A stretch of 39,296 nucleotides of DNA, taken from the IMG/VR virus record IMGVR_UViG_2541047784_000014; one strand, 5' to 3'. Both the position numbers and the translations under genes were made by a program. A model generated the notes under the pieces. The model made no database searches. It worked only from the letters and a program-made list of their open reading frames with translations, and had not been told where the DNA came from. How positions within the stretch are numbered: the first letter of the stretch is position 1; the number at the start of each line of letters is the position of its first letter. This document shows positions 3,316 through 25,571 of this stretch, piece after piece. This stretch comes from a virus (lineage: Duplodnaviria; Heunggongvirae; Uroviricota; Caudoviricetes).

Positions 3316-6072
3316 TTAGCTACTTTCAAGCATTGCAAGACGTGATTCTATTTTTTCGATTCTTCTACGCAAATAAGCTGACTCAAGCCATAAACACTGG
3401 TCAGTACGGATACCCCACCTATTTCCAGCCTTGCAAACCAGAGTTCGCTCTTCTGTTTCGTATTCTTCTTCCATCTCAATTTCGACGCCATCCACAACTT
3501 TAGTGATCATCCTTACCGCCATCACTGGCGCGTATTTATCATCCCATTCATCGTAACAGAGAAGGCCAAATCTGGTTCCATCAATCCCATGCGCGAGGAA
3601 AGTGTCTCTCACTTGTTGTGCTATAACACCAAAATGCCAGCGGGCACCATCTCCCTTTTCCCTGACGGCATCAAGCCAGCGAAAAGCTACAATCCTGATA
3701 TCTCCCCATGCATCCAGAATTGCATCACCTTCATAACCACGAGACATATACAAGCTGAGCTCACTTGTACTAATCGGTTCACTTTTTTCTCTACCATCTG
3801 ATGTGTTTATCGAACCGTTCGCAGAATAAACCTGTGCCCATCTAAATGATGGTGCACCAAGAGATTTGCTGTTATCAATAATTGGTGAAAAATTACCTTT
3901 AATGGCAATATTTCCAGAGTCGCCGAATATATTAATAACTGCAGAGTCATCACCATGGTTTTTTACGCTTAAGTTTCTTGATGAAATATTTATATCTTTG
4001 TTATATCCACTAACATTAATCCATCTTTTACCATCAATGTGATACCCGTAAATATTTCCGTCTGATTGTTCGTCAGGTGACTCTCTAAGAACAATAGCAT
4101 CTGCTCCAGACGACCATTGTATTTTTGTATCTGTAGGCCTCCAGTTCTTTATAATGAACGAACCATCAGTAAACTCCGTTTTTATTTGTCTATTGTCTAC
4201 AAATGCGTCTCTTGGTTTAAACTCACTTGTGTTAACGCTGCTCTGAAGATCAGAAGCAAAAAATCTAAGATTTCCTGTATAACCCTGAGTCTCGGTCTGG
4301 TTATACGCAATCATAATTCCATTTTCAAACTCAGATGATGTTATTTTAACATCACGGCAATCACCAAAAATGCAATTTCCTTTATCAAATGTTGTTTGAG
4401 CTTTGAATTTATCAAACCTTAAATTACGAACAGGGAAACCATCAACCTCTAATGCAAAGGATGCAGGAAGGCCAAAGTATTCTGATGGCTTACCTGATGT
4501 ATGATCAAGAGTAGTGGCTACTGTATTCTCAAAAACAGTCCCGCTAAAATTATTACCAATTGACGGAAACCTGATTACACTTATTGTACCTTGTATTTCA
4601 GGAGAAATACCAGATAGTGTGATGTTAGCTCCATCAAATGATGCATCTGAATACGTATATACTGATTCACTGCCAGCAATTTTAAACTGTTTAACTGAAG
4701 TTATTCTCATCGACTTTTTATGTTTAAATGTCACTGAGCTTTCAGTATTACTTACAAGATCAATCTGAGGGCTATTCCTTATCGCGATCCCTGACTGGAC
4801 ATAAACGTTATTAAAGTGCGTTTTTTCAGGATTTCCCTTCATTGAAAGGCTCCCGTCATTTTCTGTCAGTAGTAGTCCTTTTACCCTCCAATAGCCGACA
4901 ATCTGTACGTTATCAATAACTGAATCACAGCTATCGTATACATGCAACCCTATATCCCAGTCATCACCCAATGAATAAGAATCAGGGTTATTGTATCCTT
5001 CAATACCATTTTTACTTACCATTATTCTCAGGTTGCGTAACTGTGATGCCCTGTTGATACTAACAGCTACGCTCATGGCTTTTGGTGTAGCAGGAGTAAC
5101 ACCTACAGAATCTTCATTTGTAAACTCAGTGAACTTACAAGATATCCCTTCAACAATTTTAATTGGTCTTTCATTAGAGATGTTAAAAAAATATTTGTTT
5201 TTTTCTCCATCACCAGTAAATACAAGATGGGTTCCTTTACTCCAACTTTTTAATAATCTTTCAGGCGCTGGTCTATATGTATCCCAATAATCAATGCCAT
5301 CACCAATTAAAGACACTCCAGGAGGCACATCTATGTTCTTAGAAATCATCCATTTACCTGCAGGTATTCTAACGACACTTGCACCAGAATTTATCGCATT
5401 AATTAACCATTCAGACGCATCAACTTCAAAATTTAATGCAGCATATCTTTGCTCAAACGGAACAAAATCAAGAGCGTTAACGTTATCCCGCATCTTATCC
5501 TGGAACGTTCGGTATACTGCTCCAGAACCATACTGAATAAACCAACCAAAACCACCAACAACTCCGGCGATTGCAGCATCAACATAATTACGCATTGAGC
5601 GATTATTTACAGCATCCTGCTCAAGTGATGGATCTGCAAGGTTAGAAATTCTGTTTTGCTTTGCATCGTAATATTTTGCAAGCAAAGATGGTTTCATCAA
5701 TGCACGTCTGAACCACCCAAAACATTGCTGGATCAGCATCGTCAGGTAGTCAAAAGCATCTTCATGCACTTCGGGGAAAAATTTTCCCTGATTGCGAAGG
5801 TCTGTCTCCTGCACTACATCAAGCACACGATCTATCGTAATTCGCCATCCAGCAGCAAGCGGCGACGGAAGAACAACAGAACCGCCACTATAAGTGCCCG
5901 CCCCAGTTACCGTATAACCGGTATCCAGAACCAATTCTGTTACGTTCCCGTTCAGGTCAGACACCTGAACAACCAGGTCGGATTTTTTGAAAATACGGAA
6001 GGTATACGGAAATGATGTCGTAGCGCCGTTACCGGTGTATTCGTTGTGGTCAACTTCGGTTGAGACCGTCAT
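3316..6072 (-). CDS. Tailspike / tail fibre with T7 gp17-like N-terminal tail-attachment domain and C-terminal S74-type intramolecular chaperone domain
   Basis: GGAG 9 nt before the ATG; N-terminus (YTGNGATTSFPYTFRIF..DLVV) resembles the T7 tail-fibre N-terminal domain; AT-rich central receptor-binding region; C-terminus carries SDGREK and HFGVIAQQV motifs typical of auto-cleaving chaperone domains. Confidence 0.85.
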   Translation of the reverse strand: MTVSTEVDHNEYTGNGATTSFPYTFRIFKKSDLVVQVSDLNGNVTELVLDTGYTVTGAGTYSGGSVVLPSPLAAGWRITIDRVLDVVQETDLRNQGKFFPEVHEDAFDYLTMLIQQCFGWFRRALMKPSLLAKYYDAKQNRISNLADPSLEQDAVNNRSMRNYVDAAIAGVVGGFGWFIQYGSGAVYRTFQDKMRDNVNALDFVPFEQRYAALNFEVDASEWLINAINSGASVVRIPAGKWMISKNIDVPPGVSLIGDGIDYWDTYRPAPERLLKSWSKGTHLVFTGDGEKNKYFFNISNERPIKIVEGISCKFTEFTNEDSVGVTPATPKAMSVAVSINRASQLRNLRIMVSKNGIEGYNNPDSYSLGDDWDIGLHVYDSCDSVIDNVQIVGYWRVKGLLLTENDGSLSMKGNPEKTHFNNVYVQSGIAIRNSPQIDLVSNTESSVTFKHKKSMRITSVKQFKIAGSESVYTYSDASFDGANITLSGISPEIQGTISVIRFPSIGNNFSGTVFENTVATTLDHTSGKPSEYFGLPASFALEVDGFPVRNLRFDKFKAQTTFDKGNCIFGDCRDVKITSSEFENGIMIAYNQTETQGYTGNLRFFASDLQSSVNTSEFKPRDAFVDNRQIKTEFTDGSFIIKNWRPTDTKIQWSSGADAIVLRESPDEQSDGNIYGYHIDGKRWINVSGYNKDINISSRNLSVKNHGDDSAVINIFGDSGNIAIKGNFSPIIDNSKSLGAPSFRWAQVYSANGSINTSDGREKSEPISTSELSLYMSRGYEGDAILDAWGDIRIVAFRWLDAVREKGDGARWHFGVIAQQVRDTFLAHGIDGTRFGLLCYDEWDDKYAPVMAVRMITKVVDGVEIEMEEEYETEERTLVCKAGNRWGIRTDQCLWLESAYLRRRIEKIESRLAMLESS

Positions 6073-6572: not shown

Positions 6573-6664
6573 TTTACATCGCACTCCTCTTGTGCCATAG
6601 TAATCGGGCACTGGCAAAATCCAGTGCCGGGATTGGTCTCCCGGATTACTACAGAGGCACATAT

Positions 6665-6684
6665 GCCGCATAAGCGGTTTTTTT
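6665..6684 (+). terminator. Putative Rho-independent terminator
   Basis: Short hairpin CCGC-ataa-GCGG followed by seven T; preceded by a stable hairpin GGCACTGG-caaaat-CCAGTGCC (6607-6628). Confidence 0.45.
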
Positions 6685-6838
6685 ATGTGTAAAGCGCACC
6701 TATTCTATGGTGGGCTGTGTGGGGGCACCGAAAGGTGCGCCGGGTTCCTTTGTAGCCGGTAAGACCAACTCTGCACAGTTCACCACCATCTGATTGGTCT
6801 CAGCGGTGGTGATTAACCTAACTACAAAGGTGATCGCC

Positions 6839-7531
6839 ATGAATACCAAACCTTCCATCTTTTCCTTTGAGTCATCCTGCCAGATCCGTATGTTCATGAT
6901 TGACGGAGAACCTTGGTTTGTCACCAAAGATGTGTGCAATGCTTTGAATATTGATGTTACACAAGCGAGAAAACTTGATAAAAAAGGCTGGAACAAAAAG
7001 GGGCTGTATTCAATACAGACCCCTGGTGGAATACAAGAACTATCCATCGTTTCAGAATCAGGTCTCTACATCCTTATTCTGCGTTGCAAAGAGGCTATGA
7101 CAGAGGGAACGAGAGCATTCAGATTTCTTGAATGGGTTACAGGTGAGGTTCTTCCTCAGATCCGCCGCACCGGAAGTTACATTAAAAACTCGCTCCCGCA
7201 GGAAGAACGCATAAAGATGGTTGCCGACCAGGTAGCCAACGCCACGGCGTCAGCAGTAATGCAGGCGATGAAGATAGAGAACAAAACCTACAGTGCCCCG
7301 CTGAAGCCCGGCTACCGCAGCCTGATTCACTCGCCGTCTGGTGTTCTCGGCCTGACGGAGAACTCACTGCTGATGAATCTGCTGAACCAGTTACAGGAAG
7401 ACGGGCACGACGTATCGGGCGCGGCGGCGGAGCTGACCACCATGTTCTGCTACATCGTCGGTGTGAGTAAATGCCTGCGTGATATCCAGACGCACGCGGA
7501 GTACATCAACGACAAGGCTGGGTTCTTCTGA
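6839..7531 (+). CDS. Antirepressor with Bro-N domain
   Basis: Start set at the ATG (MNTKPSIFSF...) with AAGGTG 8 nt upstream; N-terminus has the Bro-N pattern (F.F......R....DGEPWF.A.DV...L); C-terminal domain is paralogous to the 6268-6525 product. Confidence 0.8.
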   Translation: MNTKPSIFSFESSCQIRMFMIDGEPWFVTKDVCNALNIDVTQARKLDKKGWNKKGLYSIQTPGGIQELSIVSESGLYILILRCKEAMTEGTRAFRFLEWVTGEVLPQIRRTGSYIKNSLPQEERIKMVADQVANATASAVMQAMKIENKTYSAPLKPGYRSLIHSPSGVLGLTENSLLMNLLNQLQEDGHDVSGAAAELTTMFCYIVGVSKCLRDIQTHAEYINDKAGFF

Positions 7532-7638: not shown

Positions 7639-7848
7639 ATGGGATTTTGGTTCGCTCGTACAAAAACGAGGGATAATGCACCCAGCCCTCAGGCAAAAAA
7701 TGCAGAAGTTCCGGCGTCAGCGCAGGTTAACAAGCGTGGTGGAGTATATATCTCATCACAGCAAATTTCTGAGCTTCCTGAGGTTAAGGAGATGCGTCGT
7801 CTCGCTGCTGCAATTGTTAAACAGGATCTTGCCACTGTAAGGAAGTAG
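7639..7848 (+). CDS. Hypothetical small protein (69 aa), first gene of an accessory two-gene operon
   Basis: ATG preceded by GAGGAGGAG; stop TAG overlaps the GTG of the next gene (TAGTG). Confidence 0.6.
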   Translation: MGFWFARTKTRDNAPSPQAKNAEVPASAQVNKRGGVYISSQQISELPEVKEMRRLAAAIVKQDLATVRK

Positions 7849-8714
7849 TGTTGCTAGCTCTTCTAATTATCCCAATCCTGGTTAGCGGTTATATTATGAT
7901 AACCGCTAACCAGTATCATTATTTCCGTTTATACCGACACGAAGGCCAGCTTCTTTATATGAAAGTAGCGGCACTAGGTACATATTGCCTTGTTGCATCA
8001 GTAATAATTGCAGCCGCTATAAAATATAAATGGCCTGATTTTCACCTAGTTCACGATATGGTGGAAACTTTTAATGTAACATCAAAACCAGAAACAGATA
8101 GAATTTACATGTGGCTGCTTCTTCTCTCAGCCACATCCATTTGCTTCTCTTTGTGTTATGTGTCTGTTGTGTGGGTGAAAGATTTTCTTCTTGGTTGTTT
8201 TTATAAACGTGATATTTACGAGCAAAAAACAGAGGCAATGAAGGCCAGAGTACTGCGAAAAACTTACTCGCAAGGTTCTTTAGACTTACTATTGCTTGAT
8301 GCTATTGAATCGGATCCTAAACGACCAATGCTGATTACTTTATCATCAAACAAAGTGTATGTTGGAATAATAAATGGTTCTGGTGAACCAACGGAAAATC
8401 AGGGTCCGCATCAGCACATATCTTTTGTTCCTTTAATGTCAGGATACAGGAACAAAGAAAACTTATCTGTCACATTCACTAATGCTTATCCAGGAGAAAT
8501 ACAGGTCAAGCGGACTGCAGCAATAAGAGGAATTAGCAGAAAGAAAGTGCCAGGACTTGAGATCATGGTGTCTATTGACGAAATAAGTTATATATCATGG
8601 TTTGATTTTGAAGTATATAAAGCAACAAATAACAAAGTAGAATCCAGGGGGCACGTTATTCGTGTTACCAAAAATGGAAGAAATATATATCAAAGAAATA
8701 GCAAAAAAGAATAG
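7848..8714 (+). CDS. Hypothetical inner-membrane protein (about 3 N-terminal TM segments plus a roughly 170-aa soluble domain); candidate superinfection-exclusion or abortive-infection factor
   Basis: Long AT-rich ORF with hydrophobic N-terminus, translationally coupled to the 69-aa gene and followed by a strong terminator. Start uncertain (GTG 7848, TTG 7851 or ATG 7896). Function is inference only. Confidence 0.65.
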   Translation: MLLALLIIPILVSGYIMITANQYHYFRLYRHEGQLLYMKVAALGTYCLVASVIIAAAIKYKWPDFHLVHDMVETFNVTSKPETDRIYMWLLLLSATSICFSLCYVSVVWVKDFLLGCFYKRDIYEQKTEAMKARVLRKTYSQGSLDLLLLDAIESDPKRPMLITLSSNKVYVGIINGSGEPTENQGPHQHISFVPLMSGYRNKENLSVTFTNAYPGEIQVKRTAAIRGISRKKVPGLEIMVSIDEISYISWFDFEVYKATNNKVESRGHVIRVTKNGRNIYQRNSKKE

Positions 8715-8735
8715 CCCGCGCTGCGGGCTTTTTTG
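8713..8735 (+). terminator. Rho-independent terminator
   Basis: Hairpin AGCCCGC-gct-GCGGGCT followed by a T-run, immediately after the stop at 8712-8714. Confidence 0.8.
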
Positions 8736-8772
8736 TGTCTGCGGATTCCCGCCCGGGCGGCGGTGGCATTCG

Positions 8773-8798
8773 TTAAAAACAAGGCCGCGAAAGCGGCC
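8773..8798 (-). terminator. Rho-independent terminator for the minus-strand gene 8813-9262
   Basis: Hairpin GGCCGC-gaaa-GCGGCC (8783-8798) followed on the minus strand by UUGUUUUU. Confidence 0.7.
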
Positions 8799-8799
8799 T

Positions 8800-8811
8800 G
8801 TGACATGTCAC
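8800..8811. repeat. 12-bp perfect palindrome GTGACATGTCAC (copy 1 of 3)
   Basis: Identical 12-mer also at 25802-25813 and 28066-28077, each next to a terminator-type hairpin; here it lies between the stop codon (8813-8815) and the terminator hairpin. Confidence 0.6.
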
Positions 8812-8812
8812 G

Positions 8813-9262
8813 CTACTTGCGAAATCTTTCTTTACCCTTCCAGCCAGTAGATGTTAGTTCAGGATGAATGGTTCCCAATATAAAGCCAACCATAGCGGAG
8901 CGAGGATCTTCTATTTTATCCGTTAATTCTTCGGCATAACTCACAGGCAACCAAGCAACAAGATCACCAATCCTCAGCTTTGGTCCTTTGCTGTAAGATG
9001 AATCGGCAATAACAAAAAATCCACCATCAGCTGAGCACACCTTCAGCATTGCCCTTTGTCTTCCAGAATCTAGCAAAACTGGCTGTTCCCCACTTGGACC
9101 AGGTATGATGATGGCTGGCATTGGTTTATTGGCTGAAAGGCTTGTGTCAAGATACTTACACGCATACTCAAAAGCTGAAAAGTTATCCTTAAAGATAAGA
9201 GGTTGAATTTTATTGCTAACCTCCTTACCACCGATTAATCTGTTGATCATCTTCTTGAACAT
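8813..9262 (-). CDS. Hypothetical protein (about 149 aa)
   Basis: ORF with in-frame ATG codons at 9262 and 9250 (the track start is a GTG at 9271); moderately AT-rich; followed by palindrome and terminator. Confidence 0.55.
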   Translation of the reverse strand: MFKKMINRLIGGKEVSNKIQPLIFKDNFSAFEYACKYLDTSLSANKPMPAIIIPGPSGEQPVLLDSGRQRAMLKVCSADGGFFVIADSSYSKGPKLRIGDLVAWLPVSYAEELTDKIEDPRSAMVGFILGTIHPELTSTGWKGKERFRK

Positions 9263-9274
9263 AAAGGTCACCTA

Positions 9275-9715
9275 ATGATTAAGCCGATGCACGCTATTAC
9301 AGCTACCGTTTTGTTTATCCTACCAATTTTTTCGTTTGCAAACGACATATGTTTTAAGAATTTAATAAATGAGGATATGTGTGCACATGCAAACAAAATT
9401 GCATCAGAAGCAGGAAAGTCACTTCCCATAAAATTGAATGATAATATGTCTATTGTTTCAATAAATGCAATACTAAACAAACTTTTAGTTGTAGCGCATC
9501 TTAATTACAACAACAGCTATTTATCAAAAGTTTATAACGGTGATGTAACCTTAGAAAATAAATTAAAGAGTGTAATGCGAAATTATTCAAAATCGAGCAT
9601 TTGCTCCAACAGGCAAATGAAAGCATTTATTCACCTTGGCGGAGAGATTGAATATAGGTATGTATTTAGTGATGGCAATATATTTGATACATACGCCATC
9701 ACTAATTGTGAATAG
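9275..9715 (+). CDS. Secreted (signal-peptide) Cys-containing protein, AT-rich accessory gene
   Basis: Predicted signal peptide (probable cleavage after FSFA); 4 Cys in the mature part; very AT-rich; on the strand opposite to the flanking late genes, its stop codon abutting the convergent stop of the 1129-aa gene (TAG/CTA at 9713-9718). Confidence 0.6.
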   Translation: MIKPMHAITATVLFILPIFSFANDICFKNLINEDMCAHANKIASEAGKSLPIKLNDNMSIVSINAILNKLLVVAHLNYNNSYLSKVYNGDVTLENKLKSVMRNYSKSSICSNRQMKAFIHLGGEIEYRYVFSDGNIFDTYAITNCE

Positions 9716-12700
9716 CTATTTCATCTGCTCTTCAACTTTATTTAGTAACGGTGATATCGCCCACAGGTTCTGAAAAGGTAGCATTTTACGGACCGCGTGG
9801 GTTTGCTGGCTGTCAAATTCTCCGTTAAGTACACCATTCGCAACCGTCGCGGCATCACCGCCAAGATCAAAGGTAGGACCAAGTAAAGCACCAATAGCAT
9901 TACGACTCTGAAACCTTGATACCGGAGGCGCACCAAACATCGCGCCAAGACCAAACCTACCGCCGCTTATGTTCTCAACGGTATTCAGCGGCTCAGAGAG
10001 CCAGCCAAGCATTCCGCCCCGGTCGATCCCCTCTTTCACAAGGTTATTCCAGCTGTAGTCGATATCGCGACCGCTTAACTTCTGTTTCATCATATAGACC
10101 ATTGAGCCAAGCGCAATCGTGCCAAGCGCACCAAGATAGAATGCAGCATCGCCCTGCTGGATACCAGATACTAGCACCCTGTTATGCTGTGCGAAGATAA
10201 ACGTTTTGAACTGCGTGATCATCTTCCAGCCTTCTTTACTAAAAAACAGCGGTGTATCACCTACGCCAGGCGTTACAATCACTGAGTCTACATCTTTCAG
10301 CACTGCAGACTGGAAAATCTCTCTAGCGAAACGGTCATCCCACAGATGACTATGCCCGGTTAACAGCCCGTCCATATCCTCTCCGTGCTTCCCGAATTGC
10401 TCCCCGATTCGGCGCAGAACATCTTCATTGATGCCGACCTGTGCCATCTTCCGCATTTCACTTTTGGAGAGCGTGCCACCAGCAGAAACTTGGCGAGCCG
10501 CGTCAAGTATCCTCGACTGCACTATCATCCCGGACCATGATTTAAGTGCGCTGTTCCACTGATTCATCAGCGTCCAGTTACCGAATTTCTGCGTCATCCA
10601 GTTCAGACCTCGCTCAGCGGCGCTTCTCCGGCTATAGGGGTCAGTAAGATCCGCTATAGCCTTTGTACGCGTAGACAGGACATAATCAAGCCCAACGGCC
10701 ATTTCTCGCAAATCCCTGGTTGCAATTTTCACTGAGTCCATATTTTTAAGCATGCTTACCATTGGTCCGAGAGATTTTCTCAGGCCATGCTGCATCATCG
10801 GTCGCATCAGATCAGTTGCAGCGGAGACAGTCATTCCACCAAGCAAACGGAGGAAGTTAATATTCCTAGCAACTCGCCCGGCACGAACAAAGAAACTGCG
10901 TGGATCTTGAGGTGCACCGTAAGTACCAAGCAGTCGATCACGCATAGCCGTAATATCCCTAATATCAGCCTCCCGTTGCTTCTCAAGAACTGCACGTCGT
11001 TTAGGTGTTTTAGCCTCTTTTATTAGCCGGGTATATTCCTCACTAACCTGACGGATTTGCTCCCCCATATCTTTACGGCCAAACTGCGCAGTCAGCTCAA
11101 TTTCTGGTGCCACCTGCCGGAGATAACTTTCCATGATGTAGTTAACATCTGATTCAAGAAAATCTTCTATACGCTCATCAGGAATAAGCAGCGTTCTGCT
11201 TTTAGTGAAACCAGCCCGACCAACGAGTCTCTCTGGGATAATATCGGCTGGTACAAGCCCGGAAGGTGCGCCTATTATTTTATTCACGATCTCGTCAGCA
11301 GCGTCCTCTGCTTCCTCTCGGGATAGAGGCTCCATCTGCTTCAGTGCTCGTTCGCGGCTTGCATTCAGCCTTGTGGTTGAATTTGCCCGTTTTTGCAGTC
11401 GGCGAAGCTCAGAACGATATTTCCGTGGATTATCCAGCAACTCCATATGGCGCTGATAGACAGGAAGCTCACTCTTTGCCTGCGCTATATCATCAAGGCG
11501 TGTTTTAAGGTCAGAGCTTTCTTTCATCATTCTTGCCTGAAGTTTTTCTGATGAAGTCTCGGCCAACTCTTTTTCTATTCTTGTAAGACGCGCCTGTGTG
11601 TCAGTCTCCTGAGATATAAGCTTATTTCGTTTATCCAGTTCTTCCATGAGTAGAATTTTTTTACCAGACCATTTCTCCGCTTCAGCGATTTCACTAGCGA
11701 GAGCATCAGCGCGCGGTGCCGATTCCTCTGCAGTTTTTAGCAATGAATTTATCCTTTCAATTCGCTGACCTGCTTTGTCAGCACCTTTGGCACTAATCCC
11801 TTGTATCCAGTTGGCAATTCGCCCTCTGAATTCAGTGCGGTCGGAAAGTATCTTATCGAACTTATAAATGCGGGGAAGATAACTTTTCGCCGTCACGACA
11901 TCGATATCCTCAGGAAGGATCCCCAGTTCCTGCATACGGGCTTTTGTGGTCTCGAAAATGGGGCGGATTCTGGCGGCTGCTTGTGAAACCTCAGGAATAT
12001 CACTCTGATCACCACGGCGCATAGCCATGCCAACAGCTTCATTGAACTCAATAAAGTTCATCCTCTTCACGCCGCGGGCGCTAACAGATTTGCTGTACTG
12101 CTGGTAAGCATCACGAGTGGCTTCCATCTGCTTATAAAGCATGGCGTCGTATTGCTTAATCTTAGTCTCGACTGCCGTAAACGTAGCCAACCCCTCATCA
12201 TTTTTGGCGAAGAAATAGTTATTTTCGGCAAGCTGCTGGTTAATCTGACGGGAGACAAGAGATGGTGATTGAGCCAAGCGGCCAGCAGGAGTGACACTCA
12301 ACGTTTTGTTAGCAAGTCCAAGTCCAGCGAGCTGTTCCTGATCGAGTGTGGTATTGAAAACCTGAGCTGCACCAATGCTTTGAGGAGAATCCATACCTCG
12401 CAAATGATTACCTACTGAGTTAACCACTGCCTCGCGCGCGCTAGGTCCAGCAAGTAGCTGTGCACCAGCACCAAGGATCCCACCAACGAGAGCATCAACA
12501 ACAACGTTCGATACGCTCTCCATCGGTGAGCGAGCTTCCTGAGTGGCCTGTAATGCGGCTTCTGATACTCCCCCACCAGCAGCATTCGCCAGGGCAAAAC
12601 GCCCTGCCGTCTCAGCAATACTTCCTCCACGCGCTACCGCCCCTACAGGGATAAACATTGCAGCCACATTAACCGGGTCTATCATTCCCATTGCTAAGCT

Positions 12701-13105
12701 TGAAATAGTACCAGCACCACCCATTTCAGATAGATATTCTCTATCTGTTCTTTGCTTATCGATTCGATGTTTAATTGCCATTGTTTCTTCATGCGAACCG
12801 GAGTTGATAAACGAATCTGCAAAATCTTCATAGCCTTTAATATCTGCTGCATCGTTATCAAATGGGTTATATCCTTCAACCCTGTCAAACTGACTGAAAG
12901 GAGCACTGGCAATAAAGCTACCCAGCGTGTTATCTATACGAAATGCTGCTTGTCTAGACCTTTGAACGCGTTGATCACTGGTAAATGGGTTCACAGCAGA
13001 AAGCAAAGAAGGTGTTTCCATATAGAAATTACTGTCATCAGGTGCTGCTATTTGCTGAATATCCTCGCCAAGCAACTCTTTAGGATCCTGTTCATATATC
13101 GGCAT
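9716..13105 (-). CDS. Internal virion (ejection/core) protein, T7 gp16-like position
   Basis: 1129 aa; Gly/Ala-rich hydrophobic stretches and long coiled-coil region; last large gene before the tail-fibre position in T7 order. Confidence 0.75.
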   Translation of the reverse strand: MPIYEQDPKELLGEDIQQIAAPDDSNFYMETPSLLSAVNPFTSDQRVQRSRQAAFRIDNTLGSFIASAPFSQFDRVEGYNPFDNDAADIKGYEDFADSFINSGSHEETMAIKHRIDKQRTDREYLSEMGGAGTISSLAMGMIDPVNVAAMFIPVGAVARGGSIAETAGRFALANAAGGGVSEAALQATQEARSPMESVSNVVVDALVGGILGAGAQLLAGPSAREAVVNSVGNHLRGMDSPQSIGAAQVFNTTLDQEQLAGLGLANKTLSVTPAGRLAQSPSLVSRQINQQLAENNYFFAKNDEGLATFTAVETKIKQYDAMLYKQMEATRDAYQQYSKSVSARGVKRMNFIEFNEAVGMAMRRGDQSDIPEVSQAAARIRPIFETTKARMQELGILPEDIDVVTAKSYLPRIYKFDKILSDRTEFRGRIANWIQGISAKGADKAGQRIERINSLLKTAEESAPRADALASEIAEAEKWSGKKILLMEELDKRNKLISQETDTQARLTRIEKELAETSSEKLQARMMKESSDLKTRLDDIAQAKSELPVYQRHMELLDNPRKYRSELRRLQKRANSTTRLNASRERALKQMEPLSREEAEDAADEIVNKIIGAPSGLVPADIIPERLVGRAGFTKSRTLLIPDERIEDFLESDVNYIMESYLRQVAPEIELTAQFGRKDMGEQIRQVSEEYTRLIKEAKTPKRRAVLEKQREADIRDITAMRDRLLGTYGAPQDPRSFFVRAGRVARNINFLRLLGGMTVSAATDLMRPMMQHGLRKSLGPMVSMLKNMDSVKIATRDLREMAVGLDYVLSTRTKAIADLTDPYSRRSAAERGLNWMTQKFGNWTLMNQWNSALKSWSGMIVQSRILDAARQVSAGGTLSKSEMRKMAQVGINEDVLRRIGEQFGKHGEDMDGLLTGHSHLWDDRFAREIFQSAVLKDVDSVIVTPGVGDTPLFFSKEGWKMITQFKTFIFAQHNRVLVSGIQQGDAAFYLGALGTIALGSMVYMMKQKLSGRDIDYSWNNLVKEGIDRGGMLGWLSEPLNTVENISGGRFGLGAMFGAPPVSRFQSRNAIGALLGPTFDLGGDAATVANGVLNGEFDSQQTHAVRKMLPFQNLWAISPLLNKVEEQMK

Positions 13106-25494: not shown

Positions 25495-25571
25495 GTGGCA
25501 TTAGCTCAGTTGGACAGAGCAACCGCCTTCTAAGCGGTTGGTCGCAGGTTCGAATCCTGCATGCCACGCCA
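25495..25571 (+). tRNA. tRNA-Arg, anticodon UCU
   Basis: Full cloverleaf: acceptor GTGGCAT/ATGCCAC, D-arm GCTC-AGTTGGACA-GAGC, anticodon stem ACCGC/GCGGT with loop CTTCTAA, T-arm GCAGG-TTCGAAT-CCTGC, discriminator G and encoded CCA; close to E. coli argU. Confidence 0.9.

Follow-up and report, generated by a model that had tools for sequence, protein, structure and literature searches.

A candidate periplasmic exclusion gene lying tail to tail with the last ejection-protein gene of a phiV10-like Escherichia coli prophage

A small gene of a temperate podovirus, here called gene B, was found to encode a protein with a cleavable export signal, to be convergent with the gene for the last ejection protein, and to have relatives that stand where sieA stands in phage P22. 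Its product is proposed to be a periplasmic superinfection-exclusion factor that acts on incoming ejection proteins, a reading that draws on sequence, modelling and analogy and that we favour tentatively, at somewhat less than even confidence. The gene lies in virus record IMGVR_UViG_2541047784_000014 of IMG/VR (39,296 nucleotides (nt); the whole stretch is called the window hereafter), which is a phiV10/epsilon15-like (Uetakevirus-type) temperate podovirus genome present as an E. coli prophage, with a structural region 97–98% identical to Escherichia phages EC.W1-9, vB_EcoP_PAS61, phiv142-3 and TL-2011b. Gene B and its divergent neighbor, gene A, occupy a site of variable cargo bounded by the last internal-virion gene and the tailspike gene, and B is an accessory, non-virion gene of this phage.

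Gene B and its surroundings

The features on which the argument turns are as follows, in window coordinates.

8813..9262, minus strand: gene A, 149-aa cytoplasmic protein with a probable OB-fold core (WP_000473936.1, phrog_9944), on the late-operon strand
9263..9274, both strands: 12-nt spacer between the divergent starts, holding both ribosome-binding sites on opposite strands
9275..9715, plus strand: gene B, 146-aa predicted exported protein (WP_000595048.1, phrog_8772), called as an open reading frame (ORF) and by PGAP, antisense to the late strand
9275..9340, plus strand: predicted signal peptide of B, residues 1–22, MIKPMHAITATVLFILPIFSFA and then ND, of signal peptidase I (SPase-I) type, read from the sequence
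9341..9712, plus strand: mature B domain, modeled as an AspS/PA3611-type alpha/beta fold, with Cys 26, 36, 110 and 145 and an LGGEIEY motif
9716..13105, minus strand: gene for the 1129-aa last internal-virion/ejection protein (phrog_342, 'internal virion protein with endolysin domain', E 2.7e-235), convergent with B
12749..12910, minus strand: codons 66–119 of that gene (GYNPF...GYE.FA..FI.S.S.EET.AIK..ID), a motif copied in the fusions described below, located by BLASTP

In an E. coli chromosome of 100% identity, RefSeq/PGAP calls A and B as the same two coding sequences and labels both products hypothetical, and the coordinates given for the pair in an initial annotation of this DNA (9275–9715 on the plus strand, 8813–9262 on the minus strand) agree with both the ORF and the PGAP calls. 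That annotation had also described B as very AT-rich, which was borne out (31.7% GC; the window has 48% and the 1129-aa gene 48.2%), and had placed the two starts about 12 bp apart, the measured distance being 12 nt between the ATG of A (9260–9262, minus strand) and that of B (9275). Its further claim of a stop-to-stop abutment with the 1129-aa gene and no terminator was likewise confirmed: the TAG of B (9713–9715) touches CTA (9716–9718), at which the 1129-aa gene ends on the minus strand. The interval from that gene to A is free of terminator-like sites, strong ones being located only past A, and B has no dedicated terminator, as the two stops abut.

B matched phrog_8772 (E 2e-79), which carries no assigned function. 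The ratio of nonsynonymous to synonymous substitution rates (dN/dS) was 0.17–0.23 for B and 0.08–0.16 for A, and, judged by their sequences, both are conserved genes under purifying selection; a spurious ORF at the position of B was excluded by conservation, dN/dS and the confident fold. The A+B cassette is present in 14/5426 complete E. coli genomes, and its flanks are common to 523; this distribution and the low GC content were counted as signs of foreign origin. Viewed as a moron, B shows the GC contrast and the narrow distribution (14 genomes, against the 523 in which the flanks enclose other cargo), and its promoter is only a weak, hand-read candidate.

Export signal and cysteines of B

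The signal peptide has an n-region with K3, a hydrophobic core at residues 7–21, and a cleavage site at SFA/ND (after A22), and residues 1–23 fall outside the modeled fold, with low predicted local distance difference test (pLDDT) values (58–64 for residues 1–20). The cysteines at positions 26, 36, 110 and 145 are all invariant among close homologues, and an alignment of 78 family members keeps C110 and C145 without exception and C26 and C36 at 90% conservation or more, so that the signal-peptide, four-cysteine protein of the initial annotation was recovered with its signal assigned to the SPase-I type. No lipobox was found at the conserved Cys in B (SFA/NDIC) or across the family; family-wide, the conserved Cys lies 2–5 residues past an AxA-type site, and five matches to a lipobox regular expression fall within the hydrophobic region of the signal. 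Without a lipobox, B was rejected as a lipoprotein pilotin. Sequence and model together indicate that B is a Sec-exported, soluble periplasmic protein with disulfides.

Predicted fold and a host-directed alternative

An AlphaFold2 model of B, built from the 78-sequence alignment, had a pLDDT of 91.4 overall and ~97 over the mature domain, and its best structural matches were the secretin-binding pilotin AspS and PA3611. In pilotin AspS the fold clamps a short helical segment of the channel-forming secretin. The order of elements in B is that of AspS (alpha1-beta1-3-alpha2-alpha3-beta4-5), with the addition of the extra helix that PA3611 has after beta3, and in the model the invariant C110 (end of the long helix alpha2) and C145 (C-terminus) are placed like the conserved disulfide of AspS/PA3611. 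As modeled, B fits the PA3611-like periplasmic group by its fold with the extra helix, its non-lipoprotein signal and its alpha2-to-C-terminus disulfide; PA3611, like B, has no lipobox.

The likeness to AspS is one of alpha/beta fold only. AspS is a lipoprotein with a lipobox (Lol pathway, outer membrane), whereas B has none; no sequence relation between B and AspS/PA3611 was detectable; B is phage-borne and not near secretin or type II secretion system (T2SS) genes; and B has a second, N-terminal Cys pair. The hidden Markov model (HMM) PF16549 (T2SSS_2) did not match B at E<=1, and 3/78 family members matched it weakly (best E 0.0012). A sequence-profile search of the Protein Data Bank (PDB) with the B family found neither 4ftf nor 3npd, no T2SS genes were found in the window, where B lies between the ejection-protein gene and accessory genes, and the viral fold library BFVD gave no match to B at E<=1e-3 (TM-score at most 0.40). 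Lacking the lipoprotein signal, the HMM match and the secretin context, B was not retained as an AspS-type T2SS pilotin.

The same structural matches are the chief point in favor of an alternative in which B brings about lysogenic conversion by acting on the host, as a soluble mimic of a pilotin, a secretin binder or a binder of another envelope protein; it would alter type II secretion, pili or the envelope, or block phages needing them, and leave ejection proteins untouched. PA3611 has been proposed as a secretin binder acting in the periplasm (PMC3542185), the three weak PF16549 matches point the same way, and distant members of the B family lie outside phage ejection modules. Against it, the absence of a lipobox leaves B with no outer-membrane targeting, B has no HMM-level relation to AspS, and the strict synteny with ejection genes and the fusions to an ejection-protein N-terminal module, described in the next two sections, point to the phage's own injection machinery. 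We regard this alternative as improbable.

Gene order and the sieA position of P22

The phage-context loci examined comprised Providencia L003–L005, Cedecea L006, Klebsiella L007–L009, metagenomic L013–L016 and L020–L022, and thirteen IMG/VR viral contigs (L023–L035). In all of them the B homologue (29–100% identity) is convergent with a homologue of the 1129-aa gene, usually at a distance of 0–46 nt or with a 4-nt overlap. The far side of B is occupied by gene A in the window, L006, L020–L022 and L030; by a co-directional Mnt/Arc-family repressor gene accompanied by a divergent arc-antirepressor pair, in Klebsiella; by Mnt and a 212-aa protein in L016, the 212-aa type recurring in L033; and by a small membrane protein on the opposite strand in Providencia and L035.

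The RefSeq gene order of P22 runs through genes 7, 20 and 16, the convergent sieA with its own promoter, orf59a and mnt, the divergent arc and ant, and tailspike gene 9. Klebsiella L007–L009 and L016 have a P22-like layout, with B where sieA stands, and the Mnt of L016 is 72% identical to that of P22. In Klebsiella, where B is 77% identical to the window B, an interval of 11 nt without a terminator separates B from the mnt-like gene, and a promoter-like site lies in the palindrome-rich arc-mnt spacer; from this arrangement, B in Klebsiella-type relatives is almost certainly co-transcribed with the maintenance repressor. In P22 the maintenance repressor (mnt) is a lysogen-expressed function. 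The window itself carries an isrK/C4/BRO-N module in place of mnt/arc/ant.

Because B is convergent with the ejection gene and lies on the mnt side, as P22 sieA does, gene order identifies it as the positional equivalent of sieA. In the relatives the correspondence extends to a place that follows mnt, faces arc-ant and precedes the tailspike gene, on the mnt side of an immI-type region, and both products are small envelope-located prophage accessory proteins. SieA spans the inner membrane several times; B, by contrast, consists of a single cleavable signal peptide and a soluble periplasmic alpha/beta domain with disulfides. The two also differ in phage lineage (P22-like for SieA, phiV10/epsilon15-like for B), and the function of B is a proposed one. 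BLASTP of P22 SieA against B and its neighbors gave no match to B at E<=10, and B was rejected as a SieA homologue on this result. P22 SieA blocks DNA injection, and escape mutations lie in the ejection proteins gp16 and gp20 (PMC10883804).

Fusions of the B domain to an ejection-protein module

Two diverged relatives at the same slot carry the B domain with an extension: P0030 (290 aa), present in three assemblies and as a near-identical 290-aa gene on IMG/VR contig L031 (B domain 97%), and P0038 (287 aa). Their order is signal peptide, B domain, Pro-rich linker, homologue of an ejection-protein N-terminus, transmembrane helix and basic tail, and the C-terminal transmembrane helix occurs only in these fusion relatives. 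The copied segment corresponds to the N-terminal ~100–140 residues of the adjacent ejection protein (~3–144), including its first hydrophobic helix. P0030 matches its own 982-aa ejection protein at 38% over 102 aa (E 2e-19) and the L016 ejection protein at 34% over 143 aa (residues 3–144), and P0038 matches its own 962-aa ejection protein at 35% over 110 aa (E 2e-15). By BLASTP, both also match residues 66–119 of the window 1129-aa protein at 50% identity over 54 aa (E 9e-11 for P0030 and 2e-12 for P0038). In the predicted topology an inner-membrane anchor holds both the B domain and the copied module on the periplasmic side.

Since the B domains of P0030 and P0038 are only 35% identical to each other, the fusion architecture is an old one that has been maintained. 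By domain-fusion logic, the B domain and the N-terminal module of the ejection protein would work together or on each other. The fusions, the sieA-like position and orientation and the Mnt-type gene upstream in relatives lend independent, if indirect, support to the idea of exclusion at the envelope that the initial annotation had put forward. The tail of the 178-aa Providencia-type B showed a marginal similarity to the extreme N-terminus of one ejection-protein type (z 3.9), which was not counted as evidence, and no resemblance to the ejection protein of its own phage.

Transcription signals and a lytic-cycle alternative

The following signals were located around A and B.

9214..9242, plus strand: candidate weak sigma-70 promoter for B, TTGCTA-17-TAATCT, within the first codons of A, hand-read and below the scan threshold
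9651..9678, minus strand: candidate promoter-like site TTGCCA-16-TATATT (10/12), inside the 3' end of B and directed toward A, found by scan
8782..8799, minus strand: intrinsic-terminator hairpin just after A, within a highly conserved 75–85-nt element
8713..8729, both strands: bidirectional terminator hairpin at the end of the plus-strand antirepressor/288-aa unit, also a backup for late-strand termination

The candidate for B is kept as TTGCYA/TTGATA...TAWYCT in six loci, and the TTGCCA-16-TATATT motif is also found in Klebsiella L007; promoter-like sites in the region were not commoner than in shuffles. The initial annotation had described a secreted protein embedded antisense in the late operon, which holds for B alone; A shares the strand of the late genes, and read-through would yield its sense transcript.

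A function of B in the producing cell during the lytic cycle was also weighed, in which its periplasmic product either inhibits the ejection transglycosylase, in the manner of T4 Spackle (secondary adsorption, lysis from without), or senses superinfection for the timing of lysis. The periplasmic location predicted for B is compatible with this, the 915-aa ejection protein encoded upstream of the 1129-aa gene carries an SLT transglycosylase, some B-family members are fused to LprI 'lysozyme inhibitor' domains, and the scan of the window gave no lysogenic promoter. A late gene would be oddly placed antisense to the late operon, a maintenance-repressor gene of mnt type precedes B in relatives, and the fold of B is unrelated to known lysozyme inhibitors, so that a lytic role appears decidedly improbable.

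Gene A and its relation to B

The model of A was of medium confidence, with a pLDDT of 66 (75–86 in the core), and gave only generic OB-fold matches that point to no specific function; A is a cytoplasmic protein that probably has an OB fold. Its ribosome-binding site, a good one (AGGTGA, 5 nt, then ATG), and that of B (AAGG) both lie in the 12-nt spacer. As read from gene coordinates, a spacer of this length is also found in L010, L020, L021 and L022, with 19 nt in L006. The pair recurs in the diverged loci L006, L020–L022 and L030, and in L010 with a swapped mature domain. In the latter, the gene at the position of B (4545–4988, minus strand) keeps the B signal peptide nearly unchanged (MIKPMRAITAIILFILPIISFANDI) and continues with an unrelated sequence containing two Cys where the mature part would be; compared at the sequence level, this gene is a mosaic joint at or just past the signal-peptide cleavage site.

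A two-gene system that needs the back-to-back layout (regulator and effector, toxin-antitoxin-like, or a mutually antisense switch) could account for the divergent arrangement, which is kept at 12 nt where B is only 63–79% identical to that of the window (L020, L022, L030) and where its mature domain has been replaced (L010), and at 19 nt in Cedecea L006; promoter-like sites for each gene also lie inside the other. This is very unlikely. A occurs without B in the phiV10-type L011/L012, directly after the ejection genes and on the same strand, Klebsiella, Providencia, L013, L016 and L031–L035 have B but lack A, and the promoter-like sites show no enrichment over shuffles. A distant homologue of A (29% identity over 88% of A, E 4e-6) was also found in Acinetobacter phage MD-2021a (L041 4195–5387), directly after a co-oriented cI-type repressor gene and with no B present; by analogy, this place is typical of lysogen-expressed accessory genes. 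An obligate pairing of A and B was rejected on co-occurrence, and of the back-to-back gene pair in the initial annotation the divergent arrangement stands and the functional unit does not. A is treated here as an independent accessory gene, which may be expressed by late read-through or from a promoter within B.

The B family

B has only 9 clusters of close homologues, drawn from E. coli, Klebsiella and Providencia, and an exhaustive profile search with B returned 306 cluster representatives at E<=1e-3. Most members are signal-peptide proteins of 140–150 aa, some in tandem copies, and some are fused to Sel1 or LprI-like domains. Scans of Pfam, NCBIfam and PADLOC gave nothing above threshold for B or A, a weak match of B to Ntox35 (E 0.056) being dismissed, and sequence-profile searches of the PDB with B and with A found no relatives. 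Nor did tblastn of B against 50,697 deposited phage records give a match. The homology and structure searches that the initial annotation had proposed for both proteins gave AspS/PA3611 as fold relatives of B and a generic OB fold for A, with no relatives in curated families or among PDB sequences. In the literature, no paper naming WP_000473936.1, WP_000595048.1 or the PHROG was found, and none on exclusion in phiV10/epsilon15-like phages.

Two distant members were seen next to integrase genes. In L037 (1–2827) the member adjoins an integron-type integrase, followed by several small secreted-protein genes, and in L039 (1–2749) it adjoins a phage-type integrase and a resolvase. This suggests that the B domain also moves as a mobile cassette outside phage ejection modules.

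The variable cargo slot and neighboring features

In most E. coli relatives and in EC.W1-9 the slot held by A and B in the window contains one 283-aa gene on the late strand (phrog_6118), at the following places.

L019 3569–4420, minus strand: 283-aa alternative cargo
L018 3601–4452, minus strand: 283-aa alternative cargo
L002 5069–5920, minus strand: 283-aa alternative cargo

The 283-aa protein has an N-terminal signal peptide and a Cys-x-Cys-rich N-terminus. It was rejected as a member of the B family, as its match (6.8 bits) came from the signal peptide and first Cys motif only. Exported proteins seem to accumulate in this slot; the phiV10 cargo at the same place is a 46-aa protein with two transmembrane segments. 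Many phiV10-like phages, although mosaic elsewhere, share at 94–100% identity the 75–85-nt element (window 8738–8821) that contains the terminator hairpin after A. In phiV10 this element bears a terminator annotation, and it resembles a conserved edge of the slot or a joint for recombination.

Matches at the Rfam gathering level were obtained for isrK Hfq-binding RNA (6608–6684, plus strand) and C4 antisense RNA (6703–6790, plus strand), which directly precede a BRO-N antirepressor-like gene (6839–7531). By this order, the phage has a P1/P7-type c4-antirepressor module at the place where the Klebsiella and L016 relatives have a P22-type mnt/arc/ant. Between the antirepressor gene and the bidirectional terminator lies a gene for a 288-aa low-GC (37%) protein with an N-terminal hydrophobic region (phrog_3630; 7848–8714, plus strand; PGAP 7896–8714), with a hairpin of 15-bp stem at its 5' end (7878–7913). 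Scans of Pfam, NCBIfam and PADLOC gave nothing above threshold for this protein, which, by its sequence features, could be another prophage accessory or defence gene. A tRNA gene lies within the phage genome at 25495–25568 (plus strand), on the strand opposite to the flanking large ORFs.

Proposed mechanism and points against it

Under the exclusion proposal, the lysogen would produce small amounts of B; after export by Sec and cleavage behind A22, the protein would fold in the periplasm as a disulfide-stabilized domain. There it would bind or cap the periplasmic, membrane-proximal N-terminal module of ejection proteins from a superinfecting related phage, and the capped proteins would form no trans-envelope DNA conduit, with injection blocked as the outcome. 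In the longer relatives, the B domain would be tethered to the inner membrane through its copy of the ejection module, as a decoy or poison subunit. Late transcription would run antisense through B and in sense into A, stopping at the terminators at 8799–8782 and 8729–8713, and this antisense reading would lower B expression in lytic growth, in line with the initial annotation. A broader proposal, that the B family is an unrecognized periplasmic anti-injection class that captures N-terminal modules of podovirus ejection proteins and is sometimes fused to a decoy copy, is considered rather unlikely.

Several observations weigh against the exclusion proposal. The scan of the window gave nothing resembling a promoter ahead of B on the plus strand, the hand-read candidate is weak and the conservation of its hexamers is inseparable from the coding constraint on A, and a gene of 32% GC may be silenced by H-NS. 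The window B has no decoy extension. Across loci, the identity of B correlates better with that of the neighboring C-terminal and middle parts of the ejection protein (rho 0.55) than with that of its N-terminal module (rho 0.22), which is what physical linkage alone predicts and so gives no support for covariation of B with the N-terminal module. More distant family members are not beside ejection genes, some being beside integrases or fused to Sel1 or LprI-like domains, which argues for the B domain as a general periplasmic module. The P22 parallel, too, is by gene order positional only, because B has no sequence similarity to SieA, a multi-pass membrane protein.

Comparison with other exclusion systems

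P22 SieA is the nearest known system to B in position and in proposed function, and AspS and PA3611 are the nearest in structure. Ltp of Streptococcus phage TP-J34 is reportedly a secreted lipoprotein that excludes phages via the tape measure protein. It and B, as proposed, would both be prophage proteins outside the cytoplasmic membrane that act on a channel-forming protein of the incoming phage; as compared by description, Ltp differs from B in being a lipoprotein of different fold, in coming from a Gram-positive siphovirus, and in its target, the tape measure protein, and homology between the two is not to be expected. Spackle and Imm of T4 block genome entry at the level of the periplasm after normal adsorption, and Spackle inhibits the gp5 lysozyme. 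HXS is likewise a periplasmic block of DNA entry after normal adsorption (PMC13128918). Its effector HxsA is a peptidoglycan-binding protein matured by a radical S-adenosylmethionine (rSAM) enzyme, and B is without the defining features of HxsA, Spackle or Imm. The likeness of B to Ltp, Spackle/Imm and HXS is in concept only, with no parts in common.

Implications

Assembly of the periplasmic conduit of podoviruses, and the block of that step by prophages, are poorly understood, and P22 SieA is the main genetic handle on them. The mechanism of SieA is still a model, and a soluble protein in the same slot would be easier to handle biochemically than a multi-pass membrane protein. What is new here is a candidate for exclusion in the sieA slot that is built on an unrelated, soluble pilotin-type fold and has natural candidate decoy fusions. 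The fusions point to a region of ~140 residues of the ejection protein as the partner of B, and B could help to map the interaction surface of the conduit. If the proposal is true, the PA3611-like branch of the pilotin fold would gain a first function, and catalogues of defence and exclusion systems would gain a family, PADLOC, Pfam and NCBIfam having no model for B. On the broader proposal for the B family, phages would keep an 'anti-conduit' gene tail to tail with the conduit gene it targets, the two being permanently linked.

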